DNA of 64,000 nt, taken from positions 5,230,101-5,294,100 of the forward strand of contig NC_092677.1 in the NCBI RefSeq assembly GCF_964355755.1. The letters run 5' to 3'. The stretch comes from Antedon mediterranea (lineage: Eukaryota > Animalia > Echinodermata). Shown piece after piece: positions 19,701-62,000 of the stretch. A model generated the notes under the pieces. It was given only the letters and a program-made list of their open reading frames with translations. It was not told the origin of the DNA and made no database searches. Numbering within the stretch: position 1 is the stretch's first letter; each line of letters starts with the position of its first letter. Made by a program: the position numbers and the translations under genes.

Positions 19701-20716
19701 AATTCACTCAATTGAGTCACGGTGATATTGGATAATGGTCATTCATAACTTTTGTTTATGAAGTACTGTATACTCTAACGAAACGTTTTAGATTGTCAGG
19801 ACAATCGCCAAAACAAACAATGGATAGAATTCATCGCGGGAATGGACTGTGAAGAACAGGCCAAGCAAGATAAAAAACAGATGGAAGGATGATGAGCATT
19901 TTCTGGAATGTTCTGGATGAGAGCTACTGCACAGGACAGGGAGGAGTTCCAATGCTGGAAATGTATTGAAATGATGATGTCAAAAGTCTAGGTTACTTAC
20001 AATAAACAGTAAGAGTAGATGGATCTGATAATTTAACAGCTCCATTTGCCTGTTGTATCTGACATTGATAACATCTTTGAGAATCATTTCTCAATGGCTT
20101 TACCATTACCAGGTCAGCTCTCCCATGCGTTATCTTCAACCTGAAACGGCCGTTTTCTTTCTTTTTATAATTCACAAAACCAATTTCAATAACCACTCCA
20201 TCTTCATTTAGTTCATTCCATTGTACTGCATTAGGTGTTGTAGAAGTAAATTGTGAATAATCACAAGTTATCACCACTTCAGCATCACCTTCTTTAGCTA
20301 TCTGGTGAGATGATGAAGTTTCTGTAAATTAAACGTGCTTGGGTTTAACTCTTTTTTTTAAAATAATAACTTTATACTTGAAAGGCAAACGTGAAACCTT
20401 TACTTATTATCACCCGATGCCAATCCGCAGCAGTTTTCAGATACAAAACGTAATGACGTCATGAATCTGCATCCTAAAAACCACTAAAAACATTATAGGA
20501 CTCGACGCTTGGCAGCACATTGATAAATATGTGCCTTGATACAATACATCCATACATTTTAGTACATTAATAAAATTAAACAAAAGTAGGCCCTATACAC
20601 TGTAGGCAAAAGCTGACAGAATGTATTTACTCAGATAATGAATTTTAAATAAAGTTGCGCTTACCGACAAGACAATGTACAACAAATAGTAGGCCTAGTA
20701 CCAAGTGTAAAGCCAT
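16716..20716 (-). CDS. Gene A: type-I membrane Ig receptor (signal-V-I-short Ig-TM-Tyr-motif tail). Exons 20716-20665, 20321-20001, 19288-18989, 18738-18514, 18043-17958, 17850-17719, 17428-17300, 16880-16716
   Basis: Signal MALHLVLGLLFVVHCLV. TM exon GTVITLSLILGSVLTFIIARYIY. Three phase-0 cytoplasmic exons (44, 43, 54 aa) with YQDL, YVKP, YQGL and YEEP. All splice phases are consistent, and the last exon is paralogous to the last exon of gene B. Confidence 0.8.
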
Positions 20717-22028
20717 TAATCTGAAAGACTTAAAGGGTATTAAGTCAATTATTATCTTTATCTAGCTACTGTGATACTTTCTGTAGTCATTATGGAATAA
20801 ATACTTTCATAGCAACAATAACATTAGTTGTACGGTGTTTGTTTCGTTTTCGATTGAATTTGGTATCAAATAATAATAATTGTCGTTTTGGTATAGTGTG
20901 ATATTAGGCCTATCTAAAAGAAATTGAAATGAGAAAATCACATTTGATCATTTTTATTTTTATACTGAGAATTAATTAATACAGCTAAACCATGAATTTA
21001 TCAATGGGTGAATGAATAATATTAGAGATACAGTACACTAGATTACTATTTATTTTGGCATTTGTGGCGCAGCATATACGTCCCTGGGCATTGTGACGTA
21101 ATGTTAAAGAGGCCCCTAGGAGGAGTTGAGCTGCTCTCTTCGCACATGGATTAAAGAATAGAAGGATATGCATCGACGGTGACATCAAACGATTTTACAA
21201 CGCGCTTTCCTATACTAAAGCACTGCTGCCAATCAAACAAACACGCTCATTGAACTCCGTGTCTCTAACCGCGGCCCTCTCTAAAACGCTGCGAATCAAC
21301 TGTTACATTTTTTTAGACCAAAACGTAACCATGTAGAAATCGTATGCGCAGTCTGAATGTTCTATTGACATGTCTACGTCGATGATTAATTGACAACAAA
21401 AATATATTGCTGAATAATTCTGTTTTAGTTTAATCACAATCGGACTATGAAAAGTTCACTTTCTTACGACTGGTAATTTTAAGTAGTTGGTAATATTAAT
21501 AAAATATGCAATTTTTATATTTGAATTATCATTATTTGCCTGCCATCTTCTGTCATTAAAAATTGCGTTAATCTATAGAATATTAAATTATGCACTTGAC
21601 CATGTATGTTGTTAGCGTGGCCGGTTTTCACCCATACAACAATCGTGTTTTTAATATATGGCTAAGCAGTGGTTTCTTCATAAATCTCCTTAATTATCGA
21701 TGTGATTATATTTAAATTGTAGTGCCTGGTGATTGGCTAGTGGTTATGTCATCCACATCACATCCAATCACCGGGTCTAATTGAATGAAAACAGCGATCC
21801 CTGATCCGGGATTGGCTGGCTATGTATAGTTGCGATTCGTTACCTAGCGGTCGTTTTGAAAAGTACACGCAGGGCAAACTAATCACGAACAAACGAAGTA
21901 CCTATTATTATTCACACAAGAAGTAAGACAACGGTGAGTATATAGATCATGATTACACGTATGGAACGCCTCCTCTGCCTTCAGTTCACAATGGTCATGC
22001 AGTACACACCAATCGTCATGCAGTACAC

Positions 22029-23188
22029 TATGGAACGCCTCCTCTGCCTTCAGTTCACATTTATCATGCAGTACACACCAATCGTCATGCAGTACACACC
22101 AATCGTCATGCAGTACACACCAATGGTCATGCAGTACACACCAATCGTCATGCAGTACACACCAATCGTCATGCAGTACACACCAAACATCATGCAGTAC
22201 ACACCAATCGTCATGCAGTACACACCAATCGTCATGCAGTACACACCAATCGTCATGCAGTACACACCAATGGTCATGCAGTACACACCAATTGTCATGC
22301 AGTACACACCAATCGTCGTTCACATTTATCATGCAGTACACACCAATCGTCATGCAGTACACACCAATCGTCATGCAGTACACACCAATCATCATGCAGT
22401 ACACACCAATTGTCATGCAGTACACACCAATCGTCATGCAGTACACACCAATCGTCATGCAGTCAAATATTGCGTAATTTATACCGCCACCTATCGACAA
22501 AATCGAATATCACGTGAGGTTTATTAGACGGCTGTAAAACTAAGACTATTTAAACTTCTTTTATGGAATTCAATAATTGCAATGGCCTCCTAGCCGCGCC
22601 TGTGTCTCGCATAATAAATTATTGTATATATAAAAAACAGAGCATTCACAGAGATGTGTAGCGGTTAAAATAAGTACAGTATGTCAAACATAAAAGAAAT
22701 CTTAGAGTCGATGGCCTAGTTTTACAGCCGTCTAATAAAGGTCACGTGATATTCGATTTTGTCGATAGGTGGCGGTATAAATTAGGCAATATTTCACTGC
22801 ATGACGATTGGTGTGTACTGCATGACAATTGATGTGTACTGCATGACCATTGGTGTGTACTGCATGATGTTTGGTGTGTACTGCATGACGATTGGTGTGT
22901 ACTGCATGATGTTTGGTGTGTACTGCATGACGATTGATGTGTACTGCATGACCATTGGTGTGTACTGCATGACGATTGGTGTGTACTGCATGACGATTGG
23001 TGTGTACTGCATGACCATTGGTGTGTACTGCATGATAAATGTGAACGACGATTGGTGTGTACTGCATGACCATTGGTGTGTACTGCATGACCATTGGTGT
23101 GTACTGCATGATCATTGGTGTGTACTGCATGACGACTGGTGTGTACTGCATGACCATTGTGAACTGAAGGCAGAGGAGGCGTTCCATA
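22029..23188. mobile_element. Foldback-type non-autonomous element, copy 1 (about 0.5-kb minisatellite-containing TIRs), preceded by a 69-bp arm fragment at 21960-22028
   Basis: Ends TATGGAACGCCTCCTCTGCCTTCAGTTCAC and its reverse complement, with a unique core of about 175 bp. No TSD found for this copy. Confidence 0.75.
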
Positions 23189-23210
23189 AAGGCCTACCTA
23201 GGCAGTATCA

Positions 23211-24307
23211 TATGGAACGCCTCCTCTGCCTTCAGTTCACAATGGTCATGCAGTACACACCAATCGTCATGCAGTACACACCAATGGTCATGCAGTACAC
23301 ACCAATGGTCATGCAGTACACACCAATCGTCGTTCACATTTATCATGCAGTACACACCAATGGTCATGCAGTACACACCAATGGTCATGCAGTACACACC
23401 AATAATCATGCAGTACACACCAAACATCATGCAGTACACACCAATCGTCATGCAGTACACACCAAACATCATGCAGTACACACCAATGGTCATGCAGTAC
23501 ACACCAATTGTCATGCAGTACACACCAATCGTCATGCAGTACACACCAATCGTCATGCAGTGAAATATTGCGTAATTTATACCGCCACCTATCGACAAAA
23601 TCGAATATCACGTGACGTTTATTAGACGGCTGTAAAACTAGGCCATCGTCTCTAAGATTTCTTTTATGTTTGACATACTGTACTTATTTTAACCGCTACA
23701 CATCTCTGTGAATGCTCTGTTTTTTATATATACAATAATTTATTATGCGAGACACAGGCGCGGCTAGGAGGTCATTGCAATTATTGAATTCCATAAAAGA
23801 AGTTTAAATAGTCTTAGTTTTACAGCCGTCTAATAAACCTCACGTGATATTCGATTTTGTCGATAGGTGGCGGTATAAATTACGCAATATTTGACTGCAT
23901 GACGATTGGTGTGTACTGCATGACGATTGGTGTGTACTGCATGACAATTGGTGTGTACTGCATAATGTTTGGTGTGTACTGCATGACGATTGGTGTGTAC
24001 TGCATGACGATTGGTGTGTACTGCATGATAAATGTGAACGACGATTGGTGTGTACTGCATGACAATTGGTGTGTACTGCATGACCATTGGTGTGTACTGC
24101 ATGACGATTGGTGTGTACTGCATGACGATTGGTGTGTACTGCATGATGTTTGGTGTGTACTGCATGACGATTGGTGTGTACTGCATGACGATTGGTGTGT
24201 ACTGCATGACCATTGGTGTGTACTGCATGACGATTGGTGTGTACTGCATGACGATTGGTGTGTACTGCATAATAAATGTGAACTGAAGGCAGAGGAGGCG
24301 TTCCATA
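23211..24307. mobile_element. Foldback-type non-autonomous element, copy 2 (inverted relative to copy 1), IS3EU-like
   Basis: Same TIRs. Core is the reverse complement of the copy 1 core. 6-bp TSD GTATCA (23205-23210 and 24308-24313). TAT..ATA termini with a 6-bp TSD match my recollection of the IS3EU superfamily. Confidence 0.7.
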
Positions 24308-24662
24308 GTATCAATGTCGGCAAATCATATGGTTTACTAGTAAGCCTAGAAGGCATAGGCCTAGTATCCTTGCTGATTTTGTAATTTTACATGTATGTAG
24401 GCTGAGACAATAAATAAATAGTTATTGTCTCAGATGTAGGGCTACTACAGGTCATAAAATGCTACTTTAATGTCATAAAAACATTAGCGTAGATCAATCG
24501 CGGCAGAAACATATACTAATTACAATTATAGCATCTACAATTCTAAGCCAATAACAATATAGTATTGTTTTTATTTGGTATATTGATGAAGTAGGCCTAC
24601 ACTAGGGTCTTCACAATAACATACAATGTAATTTAACAACTGTTTTCAATAAACATTATACT

Positions 24663-25120: not shown

Positions 25121-27730
25121 TTGTTTACTTGTTTACTTGTTTACTTGTTTACTTGTTTCCGGAGCTCAGCAATGCTGGTCCGGAGTCGAGGCTAGGCTAT
25201 GCCTATAAGCCCCTCTTGATAATTACATCAACTCTTGAATATGGCGCAAATTTAAGAGGGTGGTTGGACCATGCCCGTTCAAGACCGGACTTAAATTGAT
25301 TGGTTGATCTTGAAGCTACTACATCCTCCGATAACGAATTCCATAATATAATAGCTTTTCGACCAAATGAGTCCCTCATCCAATTTGTGCGTGAGAACTT
25401 AAATTTTAATTTAAAAGAATGACCACGTGTTCTAACATCTTCATCACGCTCAAAAAAAGAATCAGCAGAAATACTATCCACTCCATGTAAAATTTTCAAA
25501 ATCTGTATCAAATGAGCTCTTTGCCTTCTGTATGCGAGAGTAGGTAGGTTGAGAATTTTCAGCCTTTCTGAATAAGGTAAATGACGAATGGAAAAAATAA
25601 GCTTGGTGGCACGTTCTTGGACTTTTTCCAATAGGTCTTCCTCCTTACAATGTAGCGAGTTAAAAACAACGTTGCAGTATTCCAAGGTCGGACGAATAAT
25701 AGCTTTATATAAACGAAGAAACCCATCCATATTTAAAAACTTGAAAGCTCGATATACCATGCCCAACTTCCGATTTGCTCTCATTGCTACATCTGCCACA
25801 TGTACATTAAAAACAAGTTTAGAGTCAATAGTAACACCGAGGTCTTTTTCATGATCAACTTCATTCAATAAGAAACCACGCATGGCATACAGATGTTTGT
25901 TGTTTTTCTTCCCAAAGTGCATTACTTTGCACTTACCCTCGTTAAAAGGTAATTGCCATTTGTCAGACCAGTCACATGCTTTCTCTAAATCTTCTTGTAG
26001 AACTTGAGCATCATTCACAGTGTTAACTACTCTATACAATTTAGTATCATCTGCAAACATGCGTACAGAGGAGGAAATAACAGAAGGTAAATCATTTATA
26101 AACATAATGAAAAGAACAGGTCCAACGACGCTTCCACTACGAACATCAGCCCAATCTGAAACACATCCATTGACACTAACCCGTTGTTGTCTATCGTTAA
26201 GAAATACTTGAAACCAGTTTAGAAGTTTACCTCTAATACCCAATGCACTCATTTTCAGAAGGAGTCTATGATGAGGCACACTATCGAAAGCCTTCTTGTA
26301 GTCAAGGTAGATACAATCAAAACAATCCTGATTATCAAAATAAGAAAACCAGTTTTCAAGAACATCAAGTAATTGTAAAGCACAGGAACGACCTTGCCGG
26401 AAACCAAATTGCTCATAACAAATAAGTGAGTGATGTTCAAGAAAGTCCAATAATTCCTTCCTGATAATTCTCTCCATAATTTTACCAACTACCGAAGTTA
26501 AACTCACAGGTCTATAGTTGCTTGGGTCAGACTTCACTCCTTTTTTAAAAATCGGTACCACTGTAGCCCGTTTCCAACTATTAGGGACGGCTCCTTCTTG
26601 AAACAATTTCGTAAAAATAATATGGAGGGGATAGCAAATGATATCCTTTAGTTCGACTAAGATGCGTGGGTGAATACCATCAGGTCCAGCTGTTTTAGTA
26701 ATATTCAACGTTGATAAAATATTTAAGATTTCGTCACAAGGAAAGTCAACTTGAGATAAAAAATCCTCTGAAATGTCATCAATAGCCGGTACATTCGAAA
26801 AATTTTCATCGACAAATACACTACTAAAAAACGTGTTTAGCAACTCAGCCTTATCCTTGTCATCAGACACATGCCTTCCATTACTATCAGTTAAGTTGGG
26901 TATACCAGACTTTATATTGATCTGAGAACTGAGATACCTCCAAAAAGACTTTTCATTAGATTTGATCTCAATTGCTATTTTATTTTCGAAGTCAGATTTA
27001 CTACATCGAATCAGATCTACTGTTTGATTTCTTACTTGGACAAACTTCGACCATTTTGCTGACACACATACTTTTTGTTTTCTCTTGGCCTTTACATACT
27101 GTTTCCAACATTTATTCTTTTTGGCAATCTGCTTTTCAATTTTTTTGTTCATCCAAAGAGGTTTTCTTCCGTGGCAAACCTTCCTCATCGGGATACACTC
27201 ATCAATATTCTTCGCAAGAATATGCTCGAATTCGTCCCACGATTGAATACCTGATTTGTCATTGAAAACCACATCCCAATCTACCAAACCAATTTTCTCG
27301 CGCAGCAAATCATAGTTACCATGCCTGTAACTTCGAATATTTGGTTCAATTCTGTCATCTCTTACAAGATCCAATGAAAATTGTAACACCATATGGTCGC
27401 TTTTACCCAGTGGTGGAGACTGCATAATGCCATTTATAGTATTCTCTTTGTCTGTAAAAACCAGATCCAAAACATTGGGTGTTTCGCCTTCTCTGTATCT
27501 AGAGGTTCCATAACGTGTTGAATTAAAAATAGATCGTTGATGGTGTCAAAGAAACTTCTGCTGGAATCTCCATCTTCCGAAGACACACAATTTAATTCCC
27601 AGTTAATACTTTTATAGTTAAAATCGCCGACAACGATTAAATCAGAAAAAGATGATTTATATACTTCACGGAACAATGAGTTCAGCTTGATATTATTATC
27701 CATACTACAAGTCGGGCTACGGTAAACGCC
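25121..27730 (-). mobile_element. 5'-truncated CR1 LINE with ORF2 (partial APE endonuclease + RT), frameshifted near 27470-27500
   Basis: GVYRSP, VVGDFN, LGKSDH, PSNYRPVSLTS, YLDYKKAFDSVPH, MFADDTK, LEKVQERATK. (GTAAACAA)n 3' tail at 25121-25158. Confidence 0.9.
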
Positions 27731-30145: not shown

Positions 30146-30390
30146 TGTAGAGTTGTGTGAATTATTTATAAACGTGAGGTATAAGATAACAAAGACGTAT
30201 GCTAACTCAGTGTTAACTAGGTGCCGTGCCCGTGATGCAATAAAATTACTATGGATAACCAAATTATAATTATTAAAAACTTAACATTTTGCATAAGATA
30301 AAGTCATATGATTCATGGTTTTGTAGTGGAATTGCATGAAAATTACTGATAAAATGACAACAACTCAGCTTCACCATCGCGTTGCACATT

Positions 30391-33300
30391 TAGTCAGGTG
30401 GCTTAGCAATTTTAACGTTACCGGCCGGACAAAAGTACCAAAATTGGTATGGAGTTTCCTTTTGACCTATCTATTGATTTTATCCGTGGAACCCACTTGA
30501 TCGGGTCCGATTTTCCAAGATGGCTGCCAAAATCCAAGATGGCCGCCAGAAAAAAGGAAATGCCATATATCTGGCTGTAAAACTCGTAAATCAACAAATG
30601 GGGTGTCAATTTAAGGGTTTCTGGGGTCAATGAAACAGATGCTGGTTATGCCATATTGCTCAGACCACCTATTTCCAAGATGGCGGCCAAATTTCAAAAT
30701 GGCCGCCTAAAAAAGGAAATGTTGTGTATGTCACTCTAAAAATCGGAAATGAACAAATGAGGTATTAATTCAGGGGTTTCTGGGGTCACCGAAACAGATG
30801 CTGGTCAAGCCATTTTGCTCAGGTCACCCATTTCCAAAATGGCGGCCAAATTTCCAAATGGCTTCCAAAAAAACCCCAAAAACTTAGAAATTAACAAAAA
30901 CAATGTATGAAAAAGGTTTACTTGGCTCGACTTGTTAATGGTTATTGGACTTATATAATAGCTACATTACAGTTTACAGTTAATTACAGTTGATTTACCC
31001 TATTTGTATGAACATGTGCACCGGCAAAGAGCATTTGCAGACTGTACAGGCCCTTTTGCAGCCACATTTCACAAAGTCTCTGCAAGCTTTAGATGCCACT
31101 GGAATGGTAGACCAGACAGGTTCCCATGAGTTCCCAACTTTCACTCATGCATAGTCGGTTGGACACGGATTTGTTTGTTGAGATAACATGCATGTTGTCC
31201 AGATGCCAGCTTGGTATACGGCCCTCCTAGTGTGCTGGAGTTATAGTGCATTCTGAGTAGGTGGTATCTTGTCAACAGCTTGCCGTTTCTGGCTGAACCA
31301 GTTCCATCCGAGCACTGTTAACATTCATGGCGTTACTTGTTTTGTCATAAACTACGACAACTAGTCTCTCAGAATGTAAGTGAAGATGCTCAAACGGATG
31401 TGCGGCAAGATGAAGAAAGGAGGCATCCGTAACTTCGTCATAAGCATTCCATGCCTGCCAAAACGATTTCTTCCCATTACCTCTAAACGCTGAGGTAGTA
31501 TCACATCCTGACAGGGAGTGGAACATTGGCAGGGAACGTGATTTACGTTCACCGAGATGTGCACAAATGGCGTTGATACTGTAATGAGTGTAGTTCTTTC
31601 CAGTTCCAAATGCTATCCAGAGATCAAGATCAGCATTTATCTGAGAGAGGTCATGAAACACACCGATAAGAACAACGACAACATCTGTATCCACAGTTTG
31701 CACCTGGATGGATTTTGCTCCATTTTCCAACGCGTGTTTCACGTGAACCACAATCCTAGTGTCTGATTCCTCTTGACTACAGCTGGACATTTTGAACTGC
31801 GTTCTAACACATGTAACATGCTCTCCAGCTGTGATATATACCGAACACTCAGGAGGGATGCTGCAATCCGCAACTTTTGATGAAAGGAATTCAAAAAAGT
31901 TCTTTCTTGTTGATTGGATCACGGAGGAAGTCATTCCAGTTGCCCGGCAGCTTGGTATCACCTGATACTTGTCTACGCACACCTTTGCCTCGTTTCTCTC
32001 TGGTTCCCTCCTTAAGGCTATCTGGTCGGTATTCGTCCCACACAACATCCACTCGCTTTGTGTCACGTAGCTGACGTTTCAGATGGGGTATAAACACGTT
32101 GTCAGCATATTCTTGGAATGTTGAGACATTTATTACAGGTAATGCATGTACTGTCACCGCACCATCCAGAACTTTGCAGTCATATAATACAGGTGCCTCT
32201 GTGTGGTTTGATTCGATACATTGTAACAGATGACATTTGGTACCAGACAGATTAAGCTTTCCAAACTCAGACAGGGATGGAGGATACGACTGTACTTCGT
32301 GTGCAAAGAATTCACTGATGTCACCATCTCTATTTTGTAAGGAAATGTATAACTGGCCGAAGAGTGCCACATTGTTCTCAAGCACCTTTACTTTCTTGCA
32401 ATCCTTTGATTTGACTTTGAGCTTTGTTGAGAGCAAGGGTGGTGAATTCTTTGAGATTGTATCATGTATGGTAACGACTACGATTCACGAGCACGGTCTT
32501 CACATACTCTTGATACTTCTTTGTGCCTGTATCTTCTAGTGTACGGATTGTATCCACTACTGCCTCATTCGTGCAGTTACGACTATCAAGAGTTACTAAC
32601 TCAGGGAAGTCATCTAGGAAGGGATTTCCCATCTTGCGTATTGTGTTAGATAGACTATCAACCTGTCGCTGGAAGGTTTTCTGTGCTGCAAGTCCCTGTT
32701 CATGGTGTTCAAAGTTAGCTGGGTTTTCCGGATCATTGTCATGAATATATTCATTCTCATACTGTCTCAGAAGTCTGGCAATCTCGGGTCCAGCAGTCAT
32801 CCAGCGTCTGAAGGCAACTGTTCTCTGTAAGTCCTACTACACCACCGGATGCTTTCACCACTTTATTCTCTTGCTCATGCACTTGGTCTATTGGAATCGC
32901 AGAGTATCTGTGTAACGACTTTGCGATTGTCCAGTGATTCCGAATTTCAAACTCATATTTGATCTCTTGTGGCAATGCCTTCATGTCTCTAATGTGTACA
33001 GGCAGCCACCGAGAATAGTTCACATGATCTAACGCAACGAACAATGGCACGAGTGCCTCCAATACAGAAATAGGAAGCAATAGGAAGTCTCTCCCGATGG
33101 GCTCTAACAAATATGAGAATCAGAATCTCATGGTGTGCGATCATGTTCCAGAACTTGAACGTGGGGGATTTCTTAGACAATTGTTCAAACTCTCATCAAC
33201 ATTAGATCTCTGGTTAAATGCTTCATTCAGTAGCCGCTGAAGAACAAGAACAGTGACTTGATGGGCATGTCGAGTTCTGGTAATGTGTGATACTTTCAGC

Positions 33301-34103
33301 AATGAATCAGCTGTTCCAGATGAAGCAACGTCAGATTCAGTGAGAGCCGTTGTCCAAACTGACTCATCTAATAAATCGCCAACAGTGTTCCATAGCTCCT
33401 TCTCAATGTGCAGTCCGCCCATCATAACTACGTAGACTTTCTCACCATAGAGATCTGGCCATTTCCATTTTTAAATTTGACCGTCATCTTGGAAATGAGT
33501 AACCTGAGCAAAATGGCTTGACCAGTATCTGTTTCAGTAACCTCAGATACCTCTGAATTGACACCTTATTTGTTCATTTATGATTTTTACAGCCTTATAT
33601 AATATTTCCTTTTTTTGGCAGCCATTTTGAAATTTGGCCGCCATCTTGGAATTGGGTGACCTGAGCAAAATGGCTTGACCAGCATCTATTACAGTGACCT
33701 CAGAAACCCCTGAATTGACACCTCATTTGTTAATTTCTGATTTTTACAGTCTGATATATGACATTTGATTTTTTTGGCGGCCATTTTAAAATTTGACCGC
33801 CATCTTGGAAATTGGTGGTCTGAGGAACATGACATGACCAGCTTCTGTATCAGTGACCCCCAGAAACCCTGACATTGACACCCCATTTGTTGATTTATGA
33901 GTCTTACAGCCAGATATATGGCATTTCCTTTTTTCTGGCTGCCATCTTAGATTTTGGCCGCCATCTTGGAAAATTGGACCCGATCAAGTGGGTTCCACGG
34001 AAAAAATCAATAGATAGGTCGAAAGGAAACTCCATGCCAAATTTGGTACTTTTGTCCGGCCGGTAACGTTAATCCTGAAAATTGTTGCTAAGCCACCTGA
34101 CTA
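30391..34103 (-). mobile_element. Academ DNA transposon (internally deleted) with long TIRs
   Basis: TIR TAGTCAGGTGGCTTAGCAA...ACGTTACCGGCCGGACAAAAGTACCAAA at both ends, about 0.5 kb of inverted subterminal repeats, and a 3-bp TSD ATT (30388-30390 and 34104-34106). Confidence 0.85.
31010..33470 (-). pseudogene. Frameshifted Academ transposase with XPG-like nuclease domain and C-terminal Cys cluster
   Basis: Fragments in successive frames: GGLHIE, DHVNYSRWLPVHIRDM, DQVHEQEN, GNPF, VDVVWDEY..SLKEGTREKRG, EESDTRIVVH, TVDTDV, HSLSGCDTTSAFRGNGKK, VKCGCK. Confidence 0.8.
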
Positions 34104-34619
34104 ATTGCACTACATACTGTATGGATAAATTGTGCAAATGTTAAAATACGATCCATAAATTGCAGTCCACCTATCTCATAAATTATGTGCCCTGACGACT
34201 GAGAATTAGACTCTTCCTGAGTAGGCAGCCTATTTATTAAATTAATAATGTTAAGGGCGGGCCAGGAGAAGTACAAGTTTAAATGCTTTTTTTTTTAATT
34301 AGCAAATTATGGTGCAGGATTTTAGTAAAAATAACACCAGGTAGTGGTAGGCCTATTTTAATAGTTATAATGGTACAAACACCCAACAACATATACTTAA
34401 GTGCGTGGCAACAAGCAAGCAATGCCTAGGTTAGGTAAGCGTTGGCCTGGGTAAGCGTAGTTAAGGGTTGGGTAGCAAGTCACCCCATACAAAGTCGCCG
34501 ATTTTGCGATGGACCGACTTGTATAATAGACCAACTTTGCAATTTAAATACCATCTGTCTAGCACATGTTATGTTTTCTTAGTGTACCATAATTATCTAG
34601 GCCTCTAAATTTACTAGGA

Positions 34620-46600: not shown

Positions 46601-48867
46601 AGATGTGATAATGAGAAGAGGAAAATTGAATGGAAAGAGTATGATTGAATGGGAAGAACCAAGAATGATTTTGCAAGAAAAGGATACAAGGTATGAATTA
46701 AAGATATAGCAATAGTAATCTAATCTGACCTCGATTATTAATCTGCAATGACGTCCACTAGTTTTACTATCAAAAAAATAAGAAAATGGGTAAACTAGAA
46801 TTAAATTGTCACTTTCACGAGTTTAGATTAATCTCGCAAATGCAATGTGCACATACGTTGAAATATGAACACAAAAAGTAAATGTTTACAATGATGAATG
46901 TGTGTCTATTTTGTATCCTAGAGTATACATTATAAAATAGTATTTTATGTCTAAAGGGTTTAGTCGATTTTTAAGTTTGTTAATGTAAAAAATTCAGATT
47001 AAAAATTCAATTCAATACAATGTTTTAAAAAATGTATTTGTTTTCAAAGTGGAAAACATTTACAAATCTCACATAATAATAATAATTATTTTAAAACAAT
47101 AATCATTATAATAATTACCATGACGGTTTTTGCACGTTTCTGTTTGCTTCTGTACAGCTATCATAATATAGTACCAATTGTAACAAATAATGGAAAGGTG
47201 ATTCTAATGTGTGTTAAGCAAAACAACAAAACCAGTGAAAGGAAGATAATAAGGATGAAAACTTATGACAATGGAGACAATTGGATTGGACCATTTGACA
47301 TACAACTTGATTTGACAGACTTTCAAATGGATAGTCTAAGTAAGTTAGTATAATCTGAATCTGACTGACTATTCATATTCCAATGTTACCTTCTGCGATT
47401 AACGTAACAATCAAACCATTACACAGGTATTTTTATTGAGTTGTAAATTTTTCTTTATCAGAGGGGGGAAATGGCAAAATCACTGTGGTCATGTTACAAA
47501 GATATCGAAATGATATAGACTATCTTAACCAAATAAAACTCTTAGAAAGTAGGAATCCTTTTAATTTGCCATTCTTCCCCTGACTGTTATCAAACTGAGT
47601 GTTGATTATTTTTTGTGCAACTTACAAAAATCAAAATTAATAATCTTATCTCTAAAATGCTATTTTAATATTCTTGCCCCTTTTTTTTTATTATAATAAA
47701 AAAAATAAATAAATTGTATTATTATTATTTGTAATTTTTAGTTTATAATATATTGTACTGCTGTAAATTTGTAACAATACAGTACCTTTTAAATACTAAA
47801 ACATTACAATGTGTGCTTCCCAGGCATTGGTGATGGAAAATGCTTAAAAACAAAAAAATTGGTTGTTGCAGGAGTTTGCAAAATGGACAGTAATGCAAGT
47901 AAGAAAGTACCTTATAAACTTTCCTGTAATTAAGGTGCTCAAACAAAAGTACCGTAGTTACTTGCATTGAACTAATATTTGCATCACTTTGAACTTAATA
48001 TGATAACTGTTTGTCATTGTACTTTTTGTCTGTTATCTTGTAATTATTTTTTTATTAGTCGCAATAATTATTTAAATGATCAATGGTGTTATTTTGCAGA
48101 AAAACTAATTGTAATTATAAGTGACAATGAAGACATTTGGAATATTTTACCCCCTGTTACACCACCAGATGCTACTTTAGGAGAGCATACACAAGTAAGA
48201 TTTACTAGTGTTTACTTTTTAAGTACCTATTTTTATTTATAGTTTCTATGCTGTAAATGTCACTTTGTCATTATGGTAATTGTTTTAGATTATTGAATAT
48301 GCAAATGACCAAGTTTACATCAGCTGTTCATTGGAGGGCTGTCATCAAGTTTACGTTTCCTGCAGCAATGATAGATGTGAAACATTTGATGGCTGGGTTC
48401 AGGACGCATTTTTAGAGACAAGCCCAGAATGCCAGGTACCCTAAAACATGCCTGTTTTTAGGATTGTTTCATTCATTCATTACCATTTAAAGGGTAGATA
48501 ATATTTATATAATTTATTGTCATTTGCATTTTGTTCCATCTAGGGTGGTATTGTACGCTTACCAACAAAGTCAGGTAACTTCTACCAAATAGCAATGGCA
48601 AGTCATGGAAATGAAACAAACAAGGATCTTACACTTCACTTAAGCAAAGATGGTTGTAAAACTTGGTGTCAGTTTTACACACTAGGTGCAGTGAATGCAG
48701 AAGAATCTGACCTAGCTTACTACAGTGTAAAAGAAGGGAAAGAAGAAGCAGAGGGAATAGTGTGTGTTTACTGTTATAATTCCGAAACAGAGGGTTATAA
48801 TATTGGAATGCAGTTGATTTCTACCAAAGAAATTAACTCAAATTATAAGTGGCATTACTACATATAG
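34620..48867 (+). CDS. Gene L2 (complete, 23 coding exons, 1302 aa): signal-V-I-short Ig-TM-split Ig with Cys-rich insert-4 Ig-degenerate sialidase. Exons 34620-34662, 34932-35267, 35519-35812, 36870-37094, 37425-37493, 37671-37931, 38123-38153, 38286-38400, 38567-38621, 38905-38923, 41202-41221, 41319-41450, 41660-41974, 42770-43096, 44097-44417, 45025-45351, 45625-45670, 46541-46690, 47158-47339, 47824-47898, 48100-48194, 48289-48435, 48544-48867
   Basis: Exon lengths sum to 3909 nt in one frame with AG/GT boundaries. Signal MGFIPFLFFFSTLYGVHG and TM LYIVLIVVGLLLTWLLLLVYFILY. The 5' half is paralogous to L3 and the 3' half to L1. The signal exon is the least certain part. Confidence 0.85.
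36414..36583. repeat. Dispersed repeat, with an inverted copy at about 49780-49946
   Basis: TACAAAACACAAATTGGGTTTGTTTAAATGAGTC and GAAGTAATTCTCAGGGTGCTAATTTT appear as reverse complements near 49780-49880. Confidence 0.65.
39074..39290 (+). mobile_element. tRNA-derived SINE in an L2 intron
   Basis: tRNA-like head 39074-39149 (GGGAGTTG/CAACTCCC stem, A box TAGCCGAGTGG, B box GGTTCAATTCC), followed directly by a SINE-like body beginning GTCCACTCAGCTGTAAATG. Confidence 0.7.
39290..39830. mobile_element. Possible MITE with degenerate TIRs
   Basis: GATGAAAATTGAATTTCATTTCTA versus the reverse complement of TAGAAATTAAGTTAAAATTTCATC. No TSD verified. Confidence 0.35.
45625..48867 (+). other. GH33/NEU-like sialidase propeller domain of L2, catalytically degenerate
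   Basis: YRHPAV, VIMRRG, TYDNGDNW, SKDGCKTW, ECQGGIV, EESDL. Same 7-exon structure as in L1. Confidence 0.8.
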
Positions 48868-51800
48868 CAACATCAATGACAAATTTACTTTTTGTTATAG
48901 AATTGTTTAGTTATATTGTAGGAATAGGAACCTACTAAAATGTAGTTATAGTTTCTTTTATCATAGCTATGCTGTTGATTGGATTCAATCGCAGTCAGCG
49001 GATTTTGTGATTTCTATGTTGATATAAAGAGCTGTTAGTAATTGTCTTGTTGGTTTTTTTTTTTCATTTGCTTTAATACTACATTATCTATTGCATTGCT
49101 CAGTATTCATTATTTATATAAATGTCTTGACAGGTTATGTACAATAAAAAAAAATCAATAGATTTGTTACAGTTGGGAATTACATTGCCACAATAATACA
49201 TGTCCTTCTATGATCTGGTGTATTATGCTGCCACTATACAGAATGTCATTCATTAGTACTGTAAAATAATTAAAATAATGTCTGTATACGTGAAATCAAA
49301 AGTAAATCTGAAATTCTTTGTATGTTTGAAACAATATTATATTTGCAGTACTTCTTATGTAATATTTTATAAATGTAAACACAGGTCTGTTCAGTAAACT
49401 CTACCTGGTTTGGGTCTGATGAACAATTTAAAATTGAATTGAATAACTAAAGAATTGATGTTTAGAAATGTCGCATGTTAAACGTTATAAATTGTCCAGT
49501 CTGTTTGAACATTCAAACTATTTACAACCGCAAGGCTTTCGTCGAACACTTTGCATCAGAAATCCATGTCTCTAGTAGTCGTTAAGTGAATTGTGTACTA
49601 CTAGATGGCACGCTCGCTTCGCTCGCGTACCATCTAGGTCGTGCCCACAGATGGTTCTCGAATACACAGTATTTCCAGCGAGAAAAAAATGGAGATTTCA
49701 AATGTACGTACCGCAGGACTATAATACATTGTCGTTTACAGAAACGAGTAAATATACACAATGATTTATGTAGTCAACCAAAATTAGCACCCTGAGAATT
49801 ACTTCCGAGAGAGAAACAAAATGAGTCAAATTTTTTTATTTGGACTCATTTAAACAAACCCAATTTGTGTTTTGTATGTAACATTAAGGGTTGAGGGATG
49901 GGGGAAGAAGATAGGTACAAAGAGGAAACATTTTAAAATATATTCTTATCCACTCAGTAACGAAATATTGTTTTTAATGTGTTATAGGCCTATAAATAAT
50001 ATACCCCTAAATACAGTAAAACATTAAAACATTCACTGTCATAGTCGATTGAAATAGTAAAGTACATGTAACGATACACCACTACGACGTTTATATATTT
50101 TTAAATTATTAATTAATACAAACGTTGAGAAGCAACTGTCAGTAATAACGTTTATTTATTTGTATATTATATGTTTATAATCTAACAGTAGGGCCTACCC
50201 ACACTCACAGTAATAAAGTTTATTTGTATATATTTTTATATTACATCTAACAGTACCAACACTCACAGTAAGAAATTTGCGATTCAAATTGCGATCAAAA
50301 GTGGTTAATACCTTAACAGTATTGTACAGCATTGCAATACTATTTATGTTTATTCTCCAAGGGGGCCCATAAATCTAAATCTATACCTCTATGGTTAAAC
50401 CAAATAATTTGGAATGTTCCATTCATCACAAATCAATACATTTGTAAAAACGTATATTACATGTATCAAAATAGCATTTTTTAAAGAAAATCGGCCTGTC
50501 TTCAACATCATGATGCTGTACTCGAACTGTTCAACCGGTTTTCAGCTATTAAAAACAATTATCGTAGGAGGAGATAGGAAAATGCGAAGCGTCCTCGTAT
50601 TATTGTGTGCGGGTATTTTTCAAATTGACATCCATTAGACAGTGTATACCACGATCGGAAAACACCCCTATTTGGGGCAAATCTTTGAACCTAAATTCGT
50701 TTTAATCGTCAATAACTAATTATCGAACTCAATTTAATTAGTAAACAGGGTTACATCAGGTGGTTAAAATTAGTACCGAAAGTAAGAACCAACTTTATAT
50801 ACCATCGCGTAAAAATTCTAGAAATAACGCACGATTTACCGATTTTTGCCCTTACGTAAATTTATATATAGATTATACTATACTGTATTTGTTTTCATTT
50901 TGCATTAATAAATTATACTACACAGTCATTGTCTTGTTATTGTATTAGTTTATTTATCTGAAAGAATGTTTTACGTTGGTTTGTATGCCACAGTACTGTA
51001 CACTAATGTAAAAAATGCTGCAGTTTAAAGTAATGCATTGCTTATAAAATTGAACAAGAAATATGAATAATTAACGACGAAATTGGATGTTCATTGAAGT
51101 TTTTTTTCCCATTTTTATATCAATATTTTTTTAATTGCGGATTGTTTTGTCAGATTTTTTCCGGGGCTCATTTTTGGTTAGCCTTTGACATTTTGTTTAC
51201 ACATATGATTCAGAAACAAAGAGTATAATAATGGAAAGCTATTGATTTCTAAAAAAAATTGATATACTAATAAAATTCCTGAAAAATACGGTACTTTTTA
51301 TTACATTTAAACAACTCACCCTTTTTTGCCATTTGTTGCCTGTACAACAACACATACTTTTTCATACAGTTTATATTAAGAAAACAAGTATAGTTTTGTT
51401 TGCATAGTCGATCGTTTTCGGTGTGACTTTTCGTCGTTTGTTTCGTTTATTTGACCAGTATCAACATAATGCAATACCGTACAATATAACATAAAAAGGC
51501 CGGACACGAGCAGCTTTTCAAATTAGCCAGATGGGCCTATAAGTAGGTTAATCAATCAGTAACATTTTATTAAATTGCAATAATAGTTTCATGTGTCTAC
51601 ACATTTTATTAACAAAGTAAAATTAAGCATGTAAGATGCGAGAGAAAGTTTAAAGTTACTATCTACTCTACTTTCTATTATTTTACACTTTTCTAATCTT
51701 CCTCAACTTGTTTTATGTTGCAGCAGTAACGTAATTGCTATCAAAGCACCGTATTTGTCACAGAATGTTAAACCGCGCTGAAACCTTGGTAACTTGCAAG

Positions 51801-52324: not shown

Positions 52325-55300
52325 TTAGTCGTATAACTGTTCACAATAATGTGGTTCTGCAACCTTTTCTTTCTGTGACGTAATACAATCACGAGGCTCT
52401 TCATAAATGACCTCTTGACTTGAAGAAATAGGACTTTCAGGAGTTTGACATTCGATTTCAATCTCTTTTCTTTCCTAAAAAAACAAACAATAGCAATAAT
52501 AATTGATTGTTTCTATTGAATATATTTTAACAAAATATTATTGTTAATGATGTGTTAAAATGTTATCAATGTATGTGCCATGTCGTAGAAAAGATGGTTT
52601 ATTAGTCATTAACAAATTCATGGTACTTAAAAACAAGTTTCGATTGCTTATGATATAAATAAATATACTGGGTATATTTATTAATGTCAACACAATCTTT
52701 CCTACACTGAACGTTATTTTTTGTTAAGCTTAATTCCCTCTTGCATGCAACGTGTTGTTTTTTCCCGCTGTTCACTCCGTCAAATCGAAAAAAACTTCGG
52801 TGTAAGAGTACAACCATAGAGGAATTTATACAATAGAATATTGGAAAATTATGATTTCAGTCTCCCATTGATTCTGTTTTGTTGGAATACTTCAACAGCG
52901 TCAAACCACAGAGTTGTCAGAATTAATTGTAAATCTGTTCAGTATTAATTAATGTATTTAGGTTTTTTTACCTGTGTTCTTGTTCTGAATTGCCCTCTGT
53001 TGATTTTGCTGTAAACGTCAACATTGGATTGAGTTTTCACTTGGCCTTGACGATTTTGATATTTTGAATGGACTTCTCTTAATCGTCTTTGCTAAAGAAA
53101 CAATTTCAATAAAAAGTATTAGTTTGTTCGTTGGGTGCTTAAAGGAATGTTTATTCATCACCTTGACTTAAAACTGTAAACAAAAAGTACTTACATCAAT
53201 ACAACGTGTAAGAACAGAACCAAGAATGAATGCAATGATGATAGCCACAGTTAGTAGGCCTACCGTACCCATTTGAAACGAATCATCTAAAACTGTAGAA
53301 AAGAATTAACCGTTAGTTAAGTTTGGTTGTGAAATTATTGCAAATATTTATTTTCAATACTGGTCTAAAGTGGTGAATGATTAACAAGTTGAAATGTAAT
53401 CATTCAGACACTAACACATATTGGTAAATACAGTATGGTGACATACCTTTCAAATTTTCTGTAGGCCCATCTGTAGACATATCTGCTTTGGGCCTACAGT
53501 TCTCAAGTGATGTGGAGGCATTAAATTTTTCATTCTCTGCATAACATGTAAGATTTGATGAACATATCTCATCATTGATTTCTATAGTTGCTGTATTTTC
53601 TCCTTTCTTAACCACTTCTCCATCTTGTAATATCAATACTGATGATGGCTTGGGATGGCCCTCTGCTGTACAGGTTGCAAAACAATCTTCATGATTGAAT
53701 GTTGCGATCATATCTAATGAGGGAAGATAAAGCTTAAAGCTTAAGAAAATGAATATTCATTTGGAATCGATATAGGCCTAACAGCAAGAAAATTAAGCTT
53801 GTTATTACAGATTCAGTTCATCACACCTTTATTTAGTTATGAATATATCTGGGCCCTTACAGAAGAGGACCCACCACAGGACTCTAAATGAAAGAAAAAG
53901 AAACGAAAGAAAGAAAACTTTTAATAAACAAAGCAAATTCAAAAAGTTATTTTTAATTATGGGACCCTTTCTAAAGTACAGTACAATATATGGTAAATGA
54001 TGAACAAGAAAACTATTAATAAACAAAGCAAATTCTAAAAGTAAATGAAACATTCAGTAGGGTGGGGAGTAGGGGCAGAAAAAATAATAAGGATATTCAA
54101 AATTTAAGTATTCAGAATATAGATATAGAAAGTTTATTTTTACAAGAAAACAAAACAAAGGAAAACCAAATAGTGATATTTTTTCTAATTCAACTTATCG
54201 AAACTTCAGATTACTACAGTATATTACATAAAAACTATATTTTTGATCGGCTCATATCTTTAATAGTAGGCTATCATTAGATACAAACAAATGTACCACA
54301 ACATTGTCTACGTACAAAATATTTCAAACTGTTTTCCGGCACTAATTTTAGCATCAAGTCCCTTAAAAGGATCACTTTCTGCTTTACATGTGTATATACC
54401 ACTGTCTTCCATAGTGGCTGCTTCAATCTTAAGGGCATTGCCGTTGGTATTTATCTTCTGTCCATCTTTATACCAAGTAATGTAAGGAATAGGATCACCA
54501 TCAGGTTTACTACAAGTAAATGTGACTGTTTCACCTTCATAGACAGTGCTTGCTGAGGCATTAAGACGTGGTTGATCCATGTCTGAGAAAAACAATACAA
54601 AAAAACAACGAAAATAATGGTATACAAATAAAACAATTTACAAATTAAAGAATGAAAGACATTTATAGAGTAGACATAGTATTAATGAGGCATTAAGACG
54701 TGGCTGATCCAAGTCTGAGAAAAAGTATAAAACAAATTAGACAGCAGACAAATAAAGATGTAGTCAACACAAATTACAACAAAAAGAAGTGTATATAGTA
54801 TTATGCCTATTATTGATACTCAAGAAAATGTAGGCCTAACTCTAATTCCGGAGTTATACTATTGGCGTGACGTGGGAACATTTACAATTATAGGCCTACT
54901 ATTTAGTAAACAAATATTAAGGATGTCGGTTTATGATGTGTTTATTTTTCAGGCTACATCATGATTATCTGTTATACTCACAATATACAGTTAGCATAGA
55001 TGGACTTAATAATTTAACCAATCCATCTGCGGTTTGTATCTGGCATCTAAATATTCTCTGAGAATCGTTTCTTAAAGGATGTAAGATCACCAGGCTAGCT
55101 TCACCAGGAGCAGTGTGTAATCGGAAACGTCCATTTTCCATCTTTTTATCATTCACAATTCCTGGGTTGATGACTACTTCATCTTCATTTAGTTCATCCC
55201 ATTGTAGTGAAGTAGGAGTAGAAGTAAATTGTGAATAATCACAAGTTATCACCACTTCTGCATCGCCTTCTTTAGCTGTCTGGTTAAAGGTCGTTTGACC

Positions 55301-55622
55301 ATGTGCTTTAAAATATCAAGCATATCCTATTGTTTATATTTAACCAATGATAATTCAAAATTTAACTGTCTCAACCTAAAAATATATATATTCTACGAAG
55401 TCATGCAAACAAGTAAAAGAATAAAACTGCTCTCAATCAGCATCAGCTGTTTTTAGTTTTACGCGTTCGTAATCTGGTTATTGAAAAATAGTTCAATATT
55501 AACTGACTGACTAAAAAGTGTATGGTCGTTTAGTTGTTGATTATCATATTTAATTATATTTTAATTATCTTACCGACTAAGGATTGTATATATACAATAA
55601 ATAAAATTCGCTTCAAACCCAT
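52325..55622 (-). CDS. Gene B: type-I membrane Ig receptor (signal-V-I-short Ig-TM-Tyr-motif tail). Exons 55622-55574, 55305-54982, 54582-54316, 53713-53447, 53286-53195, 53091-52972, 52474-52325
   Basis: Signal MGLKRILFIVYIQSLVAHG. TM GTVGLLTVAIIIAFILGSVL. Tail with YQNR, VYSKI, VIYEEP and HYCEQLYD*. Splice phases are consistent, and the gene is paralogous to gene A. Confidence 0.85.
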
Positions 55623-57590: not shown

Positions 57591-57805
57591 TTGTCGTATT
57601 CGAGTGAACCGTTGAGTAGTTTTTCCATTGAGTACTTATTTAACGGAGATTTTGAGCGTTGAGATTGTTCTTAACGAAAAAGCTTTCGTTGTCAACGTTT
57701 TCTATTCCAATGACTTTCTGTTGAGCACAAATTTACAATTCGAATACTAAAAGTACTCAACGAATCTTTACGTTAACAACGAAAGTTCCCAATCGAATAC
57801 GACAA
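57591..57805. mobile_element. Small MITE in the B/L3 intergenic region
   Basis: 13-bp TIR TTGTCGTATTCGA / TCGAATACGACAA with internal GTTGAGTAC-type inverted motifs. Confidence 0.5.
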
Positions 57806-59018: not shown

Positions 59019-62000
59019 ATGCATTTACTAGTAGGTGTAGTCATATTCCTGGTTTTTACTAATGGTAAGTACCTTGTATTTCATTTCAATACAGTTTTAT
59101 ACTTCATGCTTATTATGCGATTGAAAGTATCATTTTCTGTGATAGTTTCTAAGCAATATTCAAAATCCTGAAGGATGAAAGCCACACAAAAAGACAAATA
59201 AAAAAGCATAAATATATTTTCTTTACTTTAGACCTAATAATATATTCTTTCATTTCTAGAGGCCCATTGCCAGTTGGTGACAACATCTGACCAGGAAGCC
59301 AATGAAGGTGATGCTGAAGTGGGGATAACTTGTGATTATTCACAATTTACTTCAACTGCACCTTATGCAATACAATGGGATGAACTAAATGATGGTGGAG
59401 TAATTATCAACCCAGGAATTGTGAATACTAATAAGGTGCAAAGTGAACGTTTCAGGTTAGAAACTTCTCCTGGTAAAGCTAATCTGGTGATGTCACAACC
59501 GCTGAGAAAAGATTCTCAAAGAATATTTCAATGTCAGATAAAAACACTAAGTGGAGATATTCAGTTATCAAATCCATCTATTCTAACTGTATATTGTGAG
59601 TAAAGTAGATTTAATATTCTGTTGTTATACCACTATTTCTGATGTAATACAATATTGCACCTCTGTAGAAGTTAACCTTTTTAGTAGATAGAGTCCTGGA
59701 GCATCAGTTTGGTAGTAGGGGTGTGAGAGACTGAGGTGAACACATTTTAGACAATAGACCTTTAGCTGCACCTAGAAATTTCATTTAAACTTGGAATTTA
59801 TTGACTTTATTTATTATTATTTTTCTGTTCTATCAATGTTTTATCTGAAAAATATAGAACACTAACAATGAAAGTGCTAAAAGTATAATGAATAAAAATA
59901 TCCAATCTGCAGACAGTACTATTTTGATCTTAGATCTTGTCAGTGCAGCTCAGGTTTCACAATTATTATATAGCTTAAGCTAGTTATGTTGGACATGGTA
60001 CACTGATTATGAACACAAAGAGTGCAGAAACTCAAGGAGCGAGCGTGCAATGAAAAATTCTATTAAATAATAAATTATTCTAACAAAAATGCATGGTGTG
60101 GATTTGAAGAGTGCTAGTCTAGAAAACAACATGCTTTTGTATAAAGCAGAATATAGAGAAGTGTAATATCTTATCTGCATAAAGAATAAATATAAATAAA
60201 AAAAATTATTTAACAACATTAATGATCTTTACTCTAGAAAATGTATTCTTAAAAAATACATTTATATTTTCTTTCTTTTGATAATCAGACTTAAATCAAC
60301 CACTTCTTGATGCCTCAGCAAGTACTGTCTATGAAGGTCAATCAGTGACCTTTACCTGTAGTAAACCTGATGGTGATCCTATTCCTGACATTATTTGGTA
60401 TAGAGATGGACAGACAGTCAACACCGACAACCCTTCTAGATATGAGATTGCAAATAGCAGTACAGAGTTAGTTCTTAAAATTAGATCAGCTACTGATGAA
60501 GATGGTGGGAGATATACATGTAAAGCAGAAAGTGATCAGTTTAAAGGAGATGATGCTAAGACAAGTGTTGAAAAACGGTTGATTGTAATTGGATATTGTA
60601 TGTACACATTACTTTTAACATTACTATTAATAATTGTCTTGTTAAAAGTATGATTTATGTGATTTAAATTTGATTTTAGTTTTAGTTTAAATCTAGAGAT
60701 AGACAGCATTAACATGAGCTAAATTTGTCTTTTTAGATATTTCCATTAATTTTACATCTGATGGTAGTTTTGCAACCTGTTCAGCAGATGGCTATCCCAG
60801 ACCATTATCAGTATTGATATTACAAGATGGAGAAGTGGTTAAGAAAAGAGAAAATACAGCAACTATAGAAATTAATGATGAGATATGTCAATCAAGTCTT
60901 ACCTGTGATGCAGAAAATGGAAAACTTAATCAAACAGCAGCATTAGAGAACTGTGGTCCAGGTCATACAGTATTCAGTAAATACAATTATTACAAAGCTA
61001 TACATACAAGTTTTAAAACAATATTTTAAGAAATTTAAAAATGTTGTTATAAAATAGGTCTTCCTGGTTGATAGTATATACCATTCACCAGAAAGAATAA
61101 TACATTGCTTGAATGTTAGACCTACAGATAAAATTAATTTACATTGACATCTGAGCTGATCTTGTACCCCTTTTTCAGATATCACTGTTGAGTTTACATC
61201 TGAAGATGGTTTTGCAACATGTACAGCGGAGGGCCATCCCAAGCCATCATCAGTATTGATATTAAAAGATGGAGAAGTGGTTGAGAAAGGAGAAAATACA
61301 GCAACTATAAAAATAGATGACGAGATATGTCAATCAAGTCTTACATGTTATGCAGAGAATGGAAACCTTAATGACACAGCCACACTGGAGAACTGTAGGC
61401 CCAAAGCAGGCAGGCCTACAGATGGGCCTACAGGCAATTTGAAAGGTATGTCACCATACTGTATTTACCAAGTTAGGTTAGTGACTGAGCAATACATGTT
61501 GGTGGTATTTAGTTTAATGTAAAATGCAACCAACCATTGTTAAAAGATGATTTAATCATCGTAGTGATGTCTCAAAAGAGAAAGAAAGTTAAGAGAAAAA
61601 ACAAAATGATTAAACAAATGTGTCAATATGAGTTAACAAATTAGAAAATAGTATAAAACAATGTTAATGTGTAGAAGAAAATGAATGTTAAAAGAAAATT
61701 TTTTTTGATTTTATTTATTACGTGCAATGTATTTCAATATTTTAAAAGATGATAAAATAAAAGTGGGATATACCAAGTAGATCACCAAAATACATTGCTC
61801 TTTAAACACTCCTTTTTGTTAAAACACAATTTGAAACAATGCAACTGTCAGACATTAATAACATGATGATTAACATCGCATATTTGTATTGCTTTATTTC
61901 ATGTTCATCAAGACAACAACTACTAAAGTAACTACCATATCACAACATATTCTGCCTTTTCCATCTTCCCCATGAAACATCCAACCTTCCTCATTAGCAG

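Follow-up and report, generated by a model that had tools for sequence, protein, structure and literature searches.

Activating and inhibitory immunoglobulin (Ig) receptors whose genes are coupled by conversion have been described in vertebrates. SIGLEC11 and SIGLEC16 lie head to head a few kilobases apart, combine an N-terminal V-set domain and more Ig domains with differing tails, have front domains that group by species or neighbor rather than by tail type, and are 97 to 99% identical over ∼2 kb (PMC5701461). CEACAM and CD300 receptors form multigene clusters in which the ligand-binding domain is converted between activating and inhibitory members, with escape (PMC2832619, PMC7042247, PMC12447643). 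The Alr cluster of the invertebrate Hydractinia encodes single-pass V-set/I-set receptors that match Pfam poorly and whose tails carry immunoreceptor tyrosine-based activation or inhibition motifs (ITAMs or ITIMs; PMC9546547). Apart from the near identity, these features have clear or putative likenesses in a 64,000-nucleotide window of the genome of the crinoid Antedon mediterranea (NCBI RefSeq assembly GCF_964355755.1, contig NC_092677.1, positions 5,230,101 to 5,294,100, forward strand; coordinates below count from the first position of this window), which contains the genes L1, A, L2, B, and L3 of a family of predicted V-I-C2 surface receptors that appears to be undescribed and that resembles paired receptors. 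The reading that we prefer, with a probability of roughly 0.6, is that, long ago, short pieces of DNA were exchanged among the V exons of A, L2, B, L3, and their relatives irrespective of tail type, neighbors being among the likely donors, and that the loops then diverged again.

The locus repeats a unit in which an L gene on the plus strand precedes an A-type gene on the minus strand, and the latter stands head to head with the next L gene. A/L2 and B/L3 form two such pairs, whose start codons are separated by 13.9 kb and 3.4 kb, respectively, and neighboring genes are in inverted orientation, as in paired receptors of the SIGLEC11/16 kind. Each of the four V-bearing genes consists of a signal exon, a V exon (A, 20001-20321, minus strand; L2, 34932-35267, plus strand; B, 54982-55305, minus strand; L3, 59260-59595, plus strand), an I-set exon, one or two C2-like exons, and a transmembrane exon, with matching splice phases. 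The tails group A with B (last exon, 75% DNA identity) and L2 with L3 (first tail exon, 91.6% DNA identity), in agreement with a preliminary description of the window. The AlphaFold2 model of the L3 V exon (predicted local distance difference test [pLDDT], 90) has a V fold with strands A', B, C, C', C'', D, E, F, and G, the B- and F-strand Cys residues (C24 and C91), and the C-strand Trp (W39); the C'' strand is just a two-residue bridge, and its best structure matches are antibody light-chain V domains (template-modeling score, 0.7). Pfam V-set matches are below the cutoff in two of the four V exons (in A, whose exon has AG/GT ends and phase 1/1, E = 3e-4) and absent in the other two (in L2, none at E 0.05).

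The preliminary description had proposed that the V domains cluster by head-to-head pair rather than by receptor type, and all of the motifs that it named are present at the V exons of A, L2, B, and L3. Clustering by pair was recovered in V-exon DNA (bootstrap 98 in 200 replicates) and was lost at the protein level, where A and B are closest (A-B, 67.6%; A-L2, 65.7%; L2-B, 65.4%; B-L3, 63.6%; L2-L3, 63.6%; A-L3, 59.4%). Fourteen of 25 informative sites in the V exon support the pair tree, 6 the type tree, and 5 the cross tree; the type tree had P values of 0.038 in the approximately unbiased (AU) test and 0.056 in the Kishino-Hasegawa and Shimodaira-Hasegawa tests. Relative to a star tree, the pair signal has a binomial P value of 0.016, or ∼0.05 when three topologies are allowed for. 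A supported V-exon tree joining A with B and L2 with L3, which had been named beforehand as the result that would speak against clustering by pair, was not obtained; the pair tree was found instead. Within pairs, V-exon identity is 78.4% and 78.5% in DNA and 64 to 66% in protein.

Silent sites also set the V exons apart from the rest of their genes. Between L2 and L3, synonymous divergence (dS) in the V exon, at 0.50, exceeds the 0.15 of D2 (the next exon), the 0.16 of D3, and the 0.12 of the first exon of the tail (Fisher P = 0.0004). The tails of A and B have dS values from 0.78 to saturated, whereas the V exons of A-L2 and B-L3, whose tails are unrelated, have dS values of 0.39 and 0.37. 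Informative sites in D2 lean toward type (3 pair, 12 type, 1 cross), with a tree bootstrap of only 70, and the 14:6 ratio of pair to type sites in V differs from the 3:12 ratio in D2 (Fisher P = 0.006). These comparisons support the view that the V exons have had a history different from that of the tails, with exchange between the two receptor types as its likeliest cause.

Alternatively, the V exons could be old, near star-like paralogues whose divergence prevents conversion, with homogenization acting within the L genes on their D2, D3, and tail exons; the pair signal would then reflect V-subfamily ancestry (B, L3, P0011, and P0012; P numbers denote annotated proteins) plus homoplasy. The dS values of all six V-exon pairs (0.37 to 0.70) fit such an escape from homogenization, as do the several pair motifs that proved not to be pair specific. 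Of nine other Antedon V domains, all have the Asn (N50) of INPG and eight have the Pro of TxPG; both are ancestral states. GFVN is also present in P0001 and P0002, and of the pair motifs only the Arg of GRADL is unique to A and L2 (0 of 17 other domains). Even this alternative, which we regard as unlikely though worth weighing, requires some past transfer of V domains from one tail type to the other, because V domains group by species (see below), and it leaves two observations on B and L3 unexplained.

The first of these concerns a short tract. Ten of the 14 pair-supporting sites fall within codons 49 to 75 (28 codons, C' to E strands on the AlphaFold2 model; permutation P = 0.034 for clustering), and outside these codons no V topology was rejected. 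The tract lies at 55091-55174 in B (minus strand), 59403-59486 in L3 (plus strand), 20110-20193 in A (minus strand), and 35072-35158 in L2 (plus strand). Silent closeness within it is limited to B-L3, for which the proportion of synonymous differences (pS) is 0.21, compared to 0.58 for A-L2 and 0.61 to 0.72 for nonpartners. Among codons for the same residue, 16 of 17 are identical between B and L3 inside the tract versus 39 of 50 outside, a difference that is not significant (P = 0.27); for the other five V pairs, likeness is lower within the tract than beyond it, and A and L2 have 10 of 17 such codons identical within it. For A and L2 the pair evidence is a few residues, one of them the unique Arg, and the nearest of 12 tracts to that of L2 is the A tract (68%). 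Outside the window, the A-type protein P0046 and the L-type protein P0007 are 88% identical in the tract and 68% elsewhere. In the first half of the V exon of all four genes, ∼50 nucleotides (nt) around the B-strand Cys (e.g., 34976-35026) are nearly identical, silent sites included (88 to 96% in 60-nt windows).

The second observation is an extension of the C2-like exon in B together with the start of the next intron (53404-53495, minus strand), which is common only to L3 (61397-61488). Identity in this region is 88.5% over 288 nt, and the intron flank reaches z = 18.2, compared to z = 4.2 for the runner-up among 44 flank comparisons. At the V exons, none of 12 flank comparisons reaches z = 2; no V exon has intron sequence in common with another, and hence there is no recent long tract. 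Chance homoplasy in a fast-evolving, AT-rich exon compared among four sequences might also generate a pair signal, given that this signal amounts to 14 sites, that its P values are 0.02 to 0.06, and that the hypothesis was drawn from the same data. We consider that explanation very improbable in view of the independent dS contrast, the species-level grouping of V domains, and the intron common to B and L3.

The wider family was evaluated with 24 V rows, 16 from Antedon (12 from outside the window) and 8 from Anneissia; P0027 and P0028, whose V domains are divergent, were included in none of the trees, and later trees used 17, 13, 13 or 9, and 11 of the 24 rows, with near-duplicates and some Anneissia rows excluded. 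All named full-length V matches are crinoid, and 17 weaker partial matches had no name. All 16 Antedon rows fall on one side of a branch with 100/98 support, opposite the 8 Anneissia rows. Anneissia has an A-type transmembrane region and tail (P0020 versus P0046, E = 1e-8), an Ig-sialidase protein (P0052), and a weak match to the L-type tail (P0021, E = 5e-4), and a cross-species clade of A-type V domains was rejected (P = 0.0067). The V domains group by species, then, and not by tail type. P0028, an ITAM receptor, and P0052 are listed on the same Anneissia contig (241,123 bases), a hint that their linkage may be conserved.

The pair arrangement of the quartet did not survive the addition of paralogues for B and L3. 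Both lie inside a five-gene clade (support, 94/89), a position that also accords with V-subfamily ancestry, and an exclusive B+L3 clade was rejected (P = 0.029). The V domains nearest to L3 are outside the window: P0005 (100%) and P0011 (84%), the latter its sister in the family tree (branch support, 100/98) with a tail of a different kind. The V domains of P0006 and P0008, two L-type proteins, are 99% alike, and the likeness past residue 200 is 74 to 92%; the closest V matches therefore fall between genes of one type. P0005 (XP_071958912) has a signal peptide and V domain identical to those of L3 and a slightly different next domain, and is either a haplotype of the assembly or a copy that arose by recent duplication or by conversion. 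The tail of P0011 (XP_071958835) has Ig domains and a C-terminal region that resembles TRADD-N/DED proteins (Atlas score, 0.85; a lead only, with no Pfam match). Two contigs of a second sample (X5) match the B V exon (54985-55246) without difference, and several V-like contigs of sample S1 have a depth near half that of a single copy; some V variants may be specific to one haplotype.

The preliminary description had further claimed that the CDR (complementarity-determining region)-like loops vary and that conversion between inverted partners keeps ligand specificity matched within a pair. Loop variation is real and moderate (entropy, 1.31 in distal loops versus 0.85 in strands; P = 0.019 in 13 domains). 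In the four sequences, nonsynonymous divergence (dN) is 0.45 and dS 0.42 in the CDR-like loops, compared to 0.19 and 0.52 in the rest, and dN in the FG loop is 0.62 versus an exon-wide dS of 0.50; the range of the BC loop was partly chosen after the variation had been seen. Rates near the silent rate fit relaxed or diversifying selection, the latter not proven.

Matched specificity of the SIGLEC11/16 kind fared less well. The head-to-head layout, the quartet tree by pair, the tract and D3 intron common to B and L3, the Arg unique to A and L2, and the A tract as nearest to that of L2 would all be expected from conversion between inverted partners. The loops, however, match best between A and B (12 of 18 positions, versus 8 of 18 for A-L2 and 6 of 18 for B-L3), and in a wider loop set the nearest to A is again B (71%). 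Loops do not follow pairs, and matched specificity is therefore not supported. Protein identity within pairs is 64 to 66%, V introns lack homology, the exclusive B+L3 clade was rejected, and in the C'-C''-D stretch, where pS between B and L3 is 0, only two of eight residues are alike. P0046/P0006 and P0019/P0008, putative pairs by adjacent accession numbers only, show the lowest V likeness recorded for these genes (∼55%). Considering this, conversion that keeps pairs matched seems quite unlikely, and the loops, the 78% V-exon identity, and the position of the nearest V to L3 outside the window do not support the view that conversion is confined to pairs, ongoing, or preserving specificity.

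Several results also weigh against our own preferred reading of old exchange across tail types. The C'-E tract was chosen after the data were seen, and the longest-run test on V gave P = 0.039, uncorrected, for one of six pairs. The D2 and D3 quartets favor the type tree at bootstraps of only 64 to 85, and the pair tree was not rejected for them. Neither an exclusive A+L2 clade (P = 0.30), which had no support either, nor an exclusive A+B clade (P = 0.22) was rejected in the family. At the protein level there is no recombination signal in the family (test resembling the pairwise homoplasy index, P = 0.17 to 0.37), a result in line with escape from homogenization, and the conflict between the tract and the rest is matched by 24 of 60 random column sets (45 of 60 for nine outside genes). 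Reciprocal AU tests of the tract and rest trees had seemed significant and were dropped, since random column sets do equally well. Some of the unplaced outside paralogues could be head-to-head partners of each other. It is also possible that both tail types captured a V exon once, early, and that the other exons were then homogenized.

On balance, the locus is likely to record old, patchy exchange across the family and not pair-locked matching of specificity. Nonallelic conversion or unequal exchange would have caused the swapping of V exons, as occasional events favored between neighbors yet not restricted to them. Such exchange may keep both receptor types on one pool of V scaffolds without making specificity equal within pairs, and the front domains of both types would stay interchangeable while their loops diverge. 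The receptors presumably recognize variable nonself or self ligands.

The tails differ in the signals that they could carry. Full ITAMs, following the consensus in PMC9546547, are present in P0046, P0027, and P0028; those of A and B are degenerate and accompanied by other YxxL and YxxP motifs. The motifs suggest that A-type tails signal through phosphotyrosines. The A-type receptors P0046 and P0019 combine a full ITAM with around four copies of a YQxL ... DDEGYxxP unit. The L-type protein P0009 has two ITIM-pattern motifs in an alternative stretch that was not found in the window, and in L2 and L3 an ITIM-type pattern is matched only at the edge of the transmembrane segment. Two ITIM-pattern motifs lie in the tail stretch that distinguishes the annotated isoforms P0004/P0009 from P0003, so splicing may switch inhibitory signaling on or off.

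The preliminary description overlooked that the L tails continue into an Ig array and a sialidase-like domain. L receptors have a split Ig domain, a Cys-rich stretch, four to five Ig domains, and a sialidase-like domain (37671-48867 in L2; 477-14409 in L1). The split Ig domain is interrupted by the Cys-rich hydrophobic stretch, and its two halves could fold only on the same side of the membrane; the L tail is therefore likely cytoplasmic and tethered by that stretch; sequons in the P0008 tail (10 seen, 8.4 expected) do not settle the membrane side. The terminal domain matches human NEU2 (E = 9e-7), the best sialidase among solved structures. A beta-propeller with Asp-boxes is indicated by Pfam BNR_2 above the cutoff (E = 2e-19 in L1) and by an Atlas model of the paralogue P0049 (template-modeling score to sialidases, 0.76 to 0.79); the direct model of the domain is poor (pLDDT, 47). 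The catalytic residues of NEU enzymes are R21, D46, E218, R237, R304, and Y334 (PMC3431349). In the NEU2 alignment R21 is kept, the D46 loop is gapped, R237 is replaced, and E218 is ambiguous. The R304 position, which like that of Y334 was placed by alignment with a bacterial sialidase and by the expected motif position, is Asn, Thr, Lys, or Phe, and the Y334 position is Glu or Ser. Four of the six catalytic positions appear to be lost, and the domain is likely a pseudo-sialidase, a noncatalytic sialidase fold, because only R21 is surely kept. L1 and L2 have nonetheless conserved their last exon (dN, 0.09; dS, 0.17).

Gene A (16717-20716, minus strand; 469 amino acids) has its signal exon at 20665-20716, I-set exon at 18989-19288, C2-like exon at 18514-18738, transmembrane exon at 17958-18043, and Tyr-motif tail exons at 17719-17850, 17300-17428, and 16717-16880. 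RefSeq XP_071958847 (P0015) equals gene A from mid-V onward. A 15-nt candidate exon (18248-18262) was rejected because it disrupts the frame, and RefSeq also skips it. Gene B (52325-55622, minus strand; 424 amino acids, open spliced frame) has its signal exon at 55574-55622, I-set exon at 54316-54582, C2-like exon at 53447-53713, transmembrane exon at 53195-53292, and Tyr-motif tail exons at 52972-53091 and 52325-52474. Its I-set domain is ∼12 residues shorter than in the other three genes, and protein searches returned no RefSeq model carrying its V domain.

Gene L2 (34620-48867, plus strand) has a candidate signal exon with a weak donor (34620-34662), followed by I-set (35519-35812), C2-like (36870-37094), and transmembrane (37425-37493) exons. 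The tail consists of an exon with a half-Ig and the Cys-rich stretch (37671-37931), linker exons, the second half-Ig (41319-41450), four Ig exons (41660-45351), and sialidase-like exons (45625-48867), and it thus runs past ∼38.6 kb, in frame, into the Ig and BNR domains. The model has 23 exons, every inner end of which is AG/GT, and a single open frame of 1302 amino acids; an earlier signal exon candidate (34667-34712) had no in-frame ATG and was rejected. Joining the 5' part to the 3' part, of which RefSeq annotates only the latter (P0048), is our proposal, and RefSeq annotates the same architecture in P0006, P0007, and P0008 (L1 and two other paralogues). L2 spliced joints were not among the 15 of 82 joints listed for contigs of four sequencing runs, of which X5 may be DNA; summed contig depth over V exons was high, and this depth is not a copy number.

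The 5' part of gene L3 (59019-64000, plus strand) comprises a signal exon, an I-set exon (60289-60597), C2-like exons (60737-60961 and 61179-61445), a transmembrane exon (62291-62368), the half-Ig and Cys-rich exon (62715-62975), and linker exons up to the window end; RefSeq XP_071958850 (P0010) covers it as far as the transmembrane exon. The 3' part of gene L1 (477-14409, plus strand) holds the Ig array and sialidase-like domain, and its exons match RefSeq XP_071958844 (P0008, 1411 amino acids); its V exon is located left of the window. The window exons match the Antedon mediterranea RefSeq proteins P0008, P0010, P0015, and P0048 at 100%, and the composition is that of AT-rich animal DNA.

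Repeats and mobile DNA occupy the spacer between A and L2 (21940-34107), which does not resemble the B-L3 spacer at a threshold of E 1e-8. It contains a palindromic array of 21-bp repeats (21940-24390) in four alternating orientations, with 928-nt arms that are 97% complementary, and, 500 bp upstream of L2, a 3.7-kb element with 498-bp inverted ends (30387-34107), within which are internal 157- to 159-bp repeats and broken transposase-like frames without a Pfam match. Long interspersed nuclear element reverse-transcriptase frames were found at 7517-9652 (minus strand), 12431-13390 (plus strand), and 25206-27545 (minus strand), two of them inside L1 introns. Copies of a short, high-copy interspersed element are at 36413-36742, 49624-49947, and 15579-15647.

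No account of this crinoid family was found in the literature searched, including the parts of PMC9546547 and PMC11999971 used here; supplements to papers, which were outside the search, could list such genes. The fusion of a V-Ig receptor to a likely pseudo-sialidase is an architecture that we did not find described, in a phylum that is rich in sialic acids (PMC3431349). A more far-reaching proposal, which we hold only tentatively and think rather doubtful, is that crinoids independently built paired receptors of the vertebrate style. Head-to-head genes would draw on one exchangeable V pool and join it to ITAM-type activating tails or to long tails with a dead sialidase, ITIMs, or a death-fold domain; the C'-E segment would act as a cassette between partners, and the sialidase-derived domain as a sialic-acid-binding or scaffolding module. 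If confirmed, the family would allow two possible effects of conversion between receptor types, matched specificity or merely interchangeable scaffolds, to be told apart in an invertebrate deuterostome. Present data favor interchangeable scaffolds, and with the claim of pair-locked matching weak, the family itself is the more interesting object.

Siglecs have an essential F-strand Arg; in all four crinoid V domains Gln follows the F-strand Cys, at the presumed position of that Arg. No Siglec entry was among the rows listed for the best 50 structure matches of the V model or among the listed sequence matches. To our knowledge, no CEACAM or CD300 receptor has an Ig-array, sialidase-like, or death-fold tail; these are vertebrate families, and the likeness to them is one of description only. 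Unlike the Alr V domains, which are without the canonical Cys-Trp-Cys pin, the crinoid domains keep it, and the third Alr domain is Fn3-like (PMC9546547); no Alr protein was among the named family hits, most weak hits being unnamed. The L tail ends in a BNR/Asp-box domain like those of the metazoan sialidases NEU2/3/4/5 (PMC3431349), from which it differs in its apparent catalytic losses and in being fused behind a transmembrane segment and an Ig array. SIGLEC11 and SIGLEC16 are nearly identical, introns included, with similar glycan binding, whereas the crinoid pairs have 78% identity in one exon, no intron homology there, unmatched loops, and more than two donors (PMC5701461 for the SIGLEC genes). 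Because the near identity is lacking and the opposite signaling is putative, this locus is not filed with the converted paired receptors; by analogy, it would work as a loose version of them.

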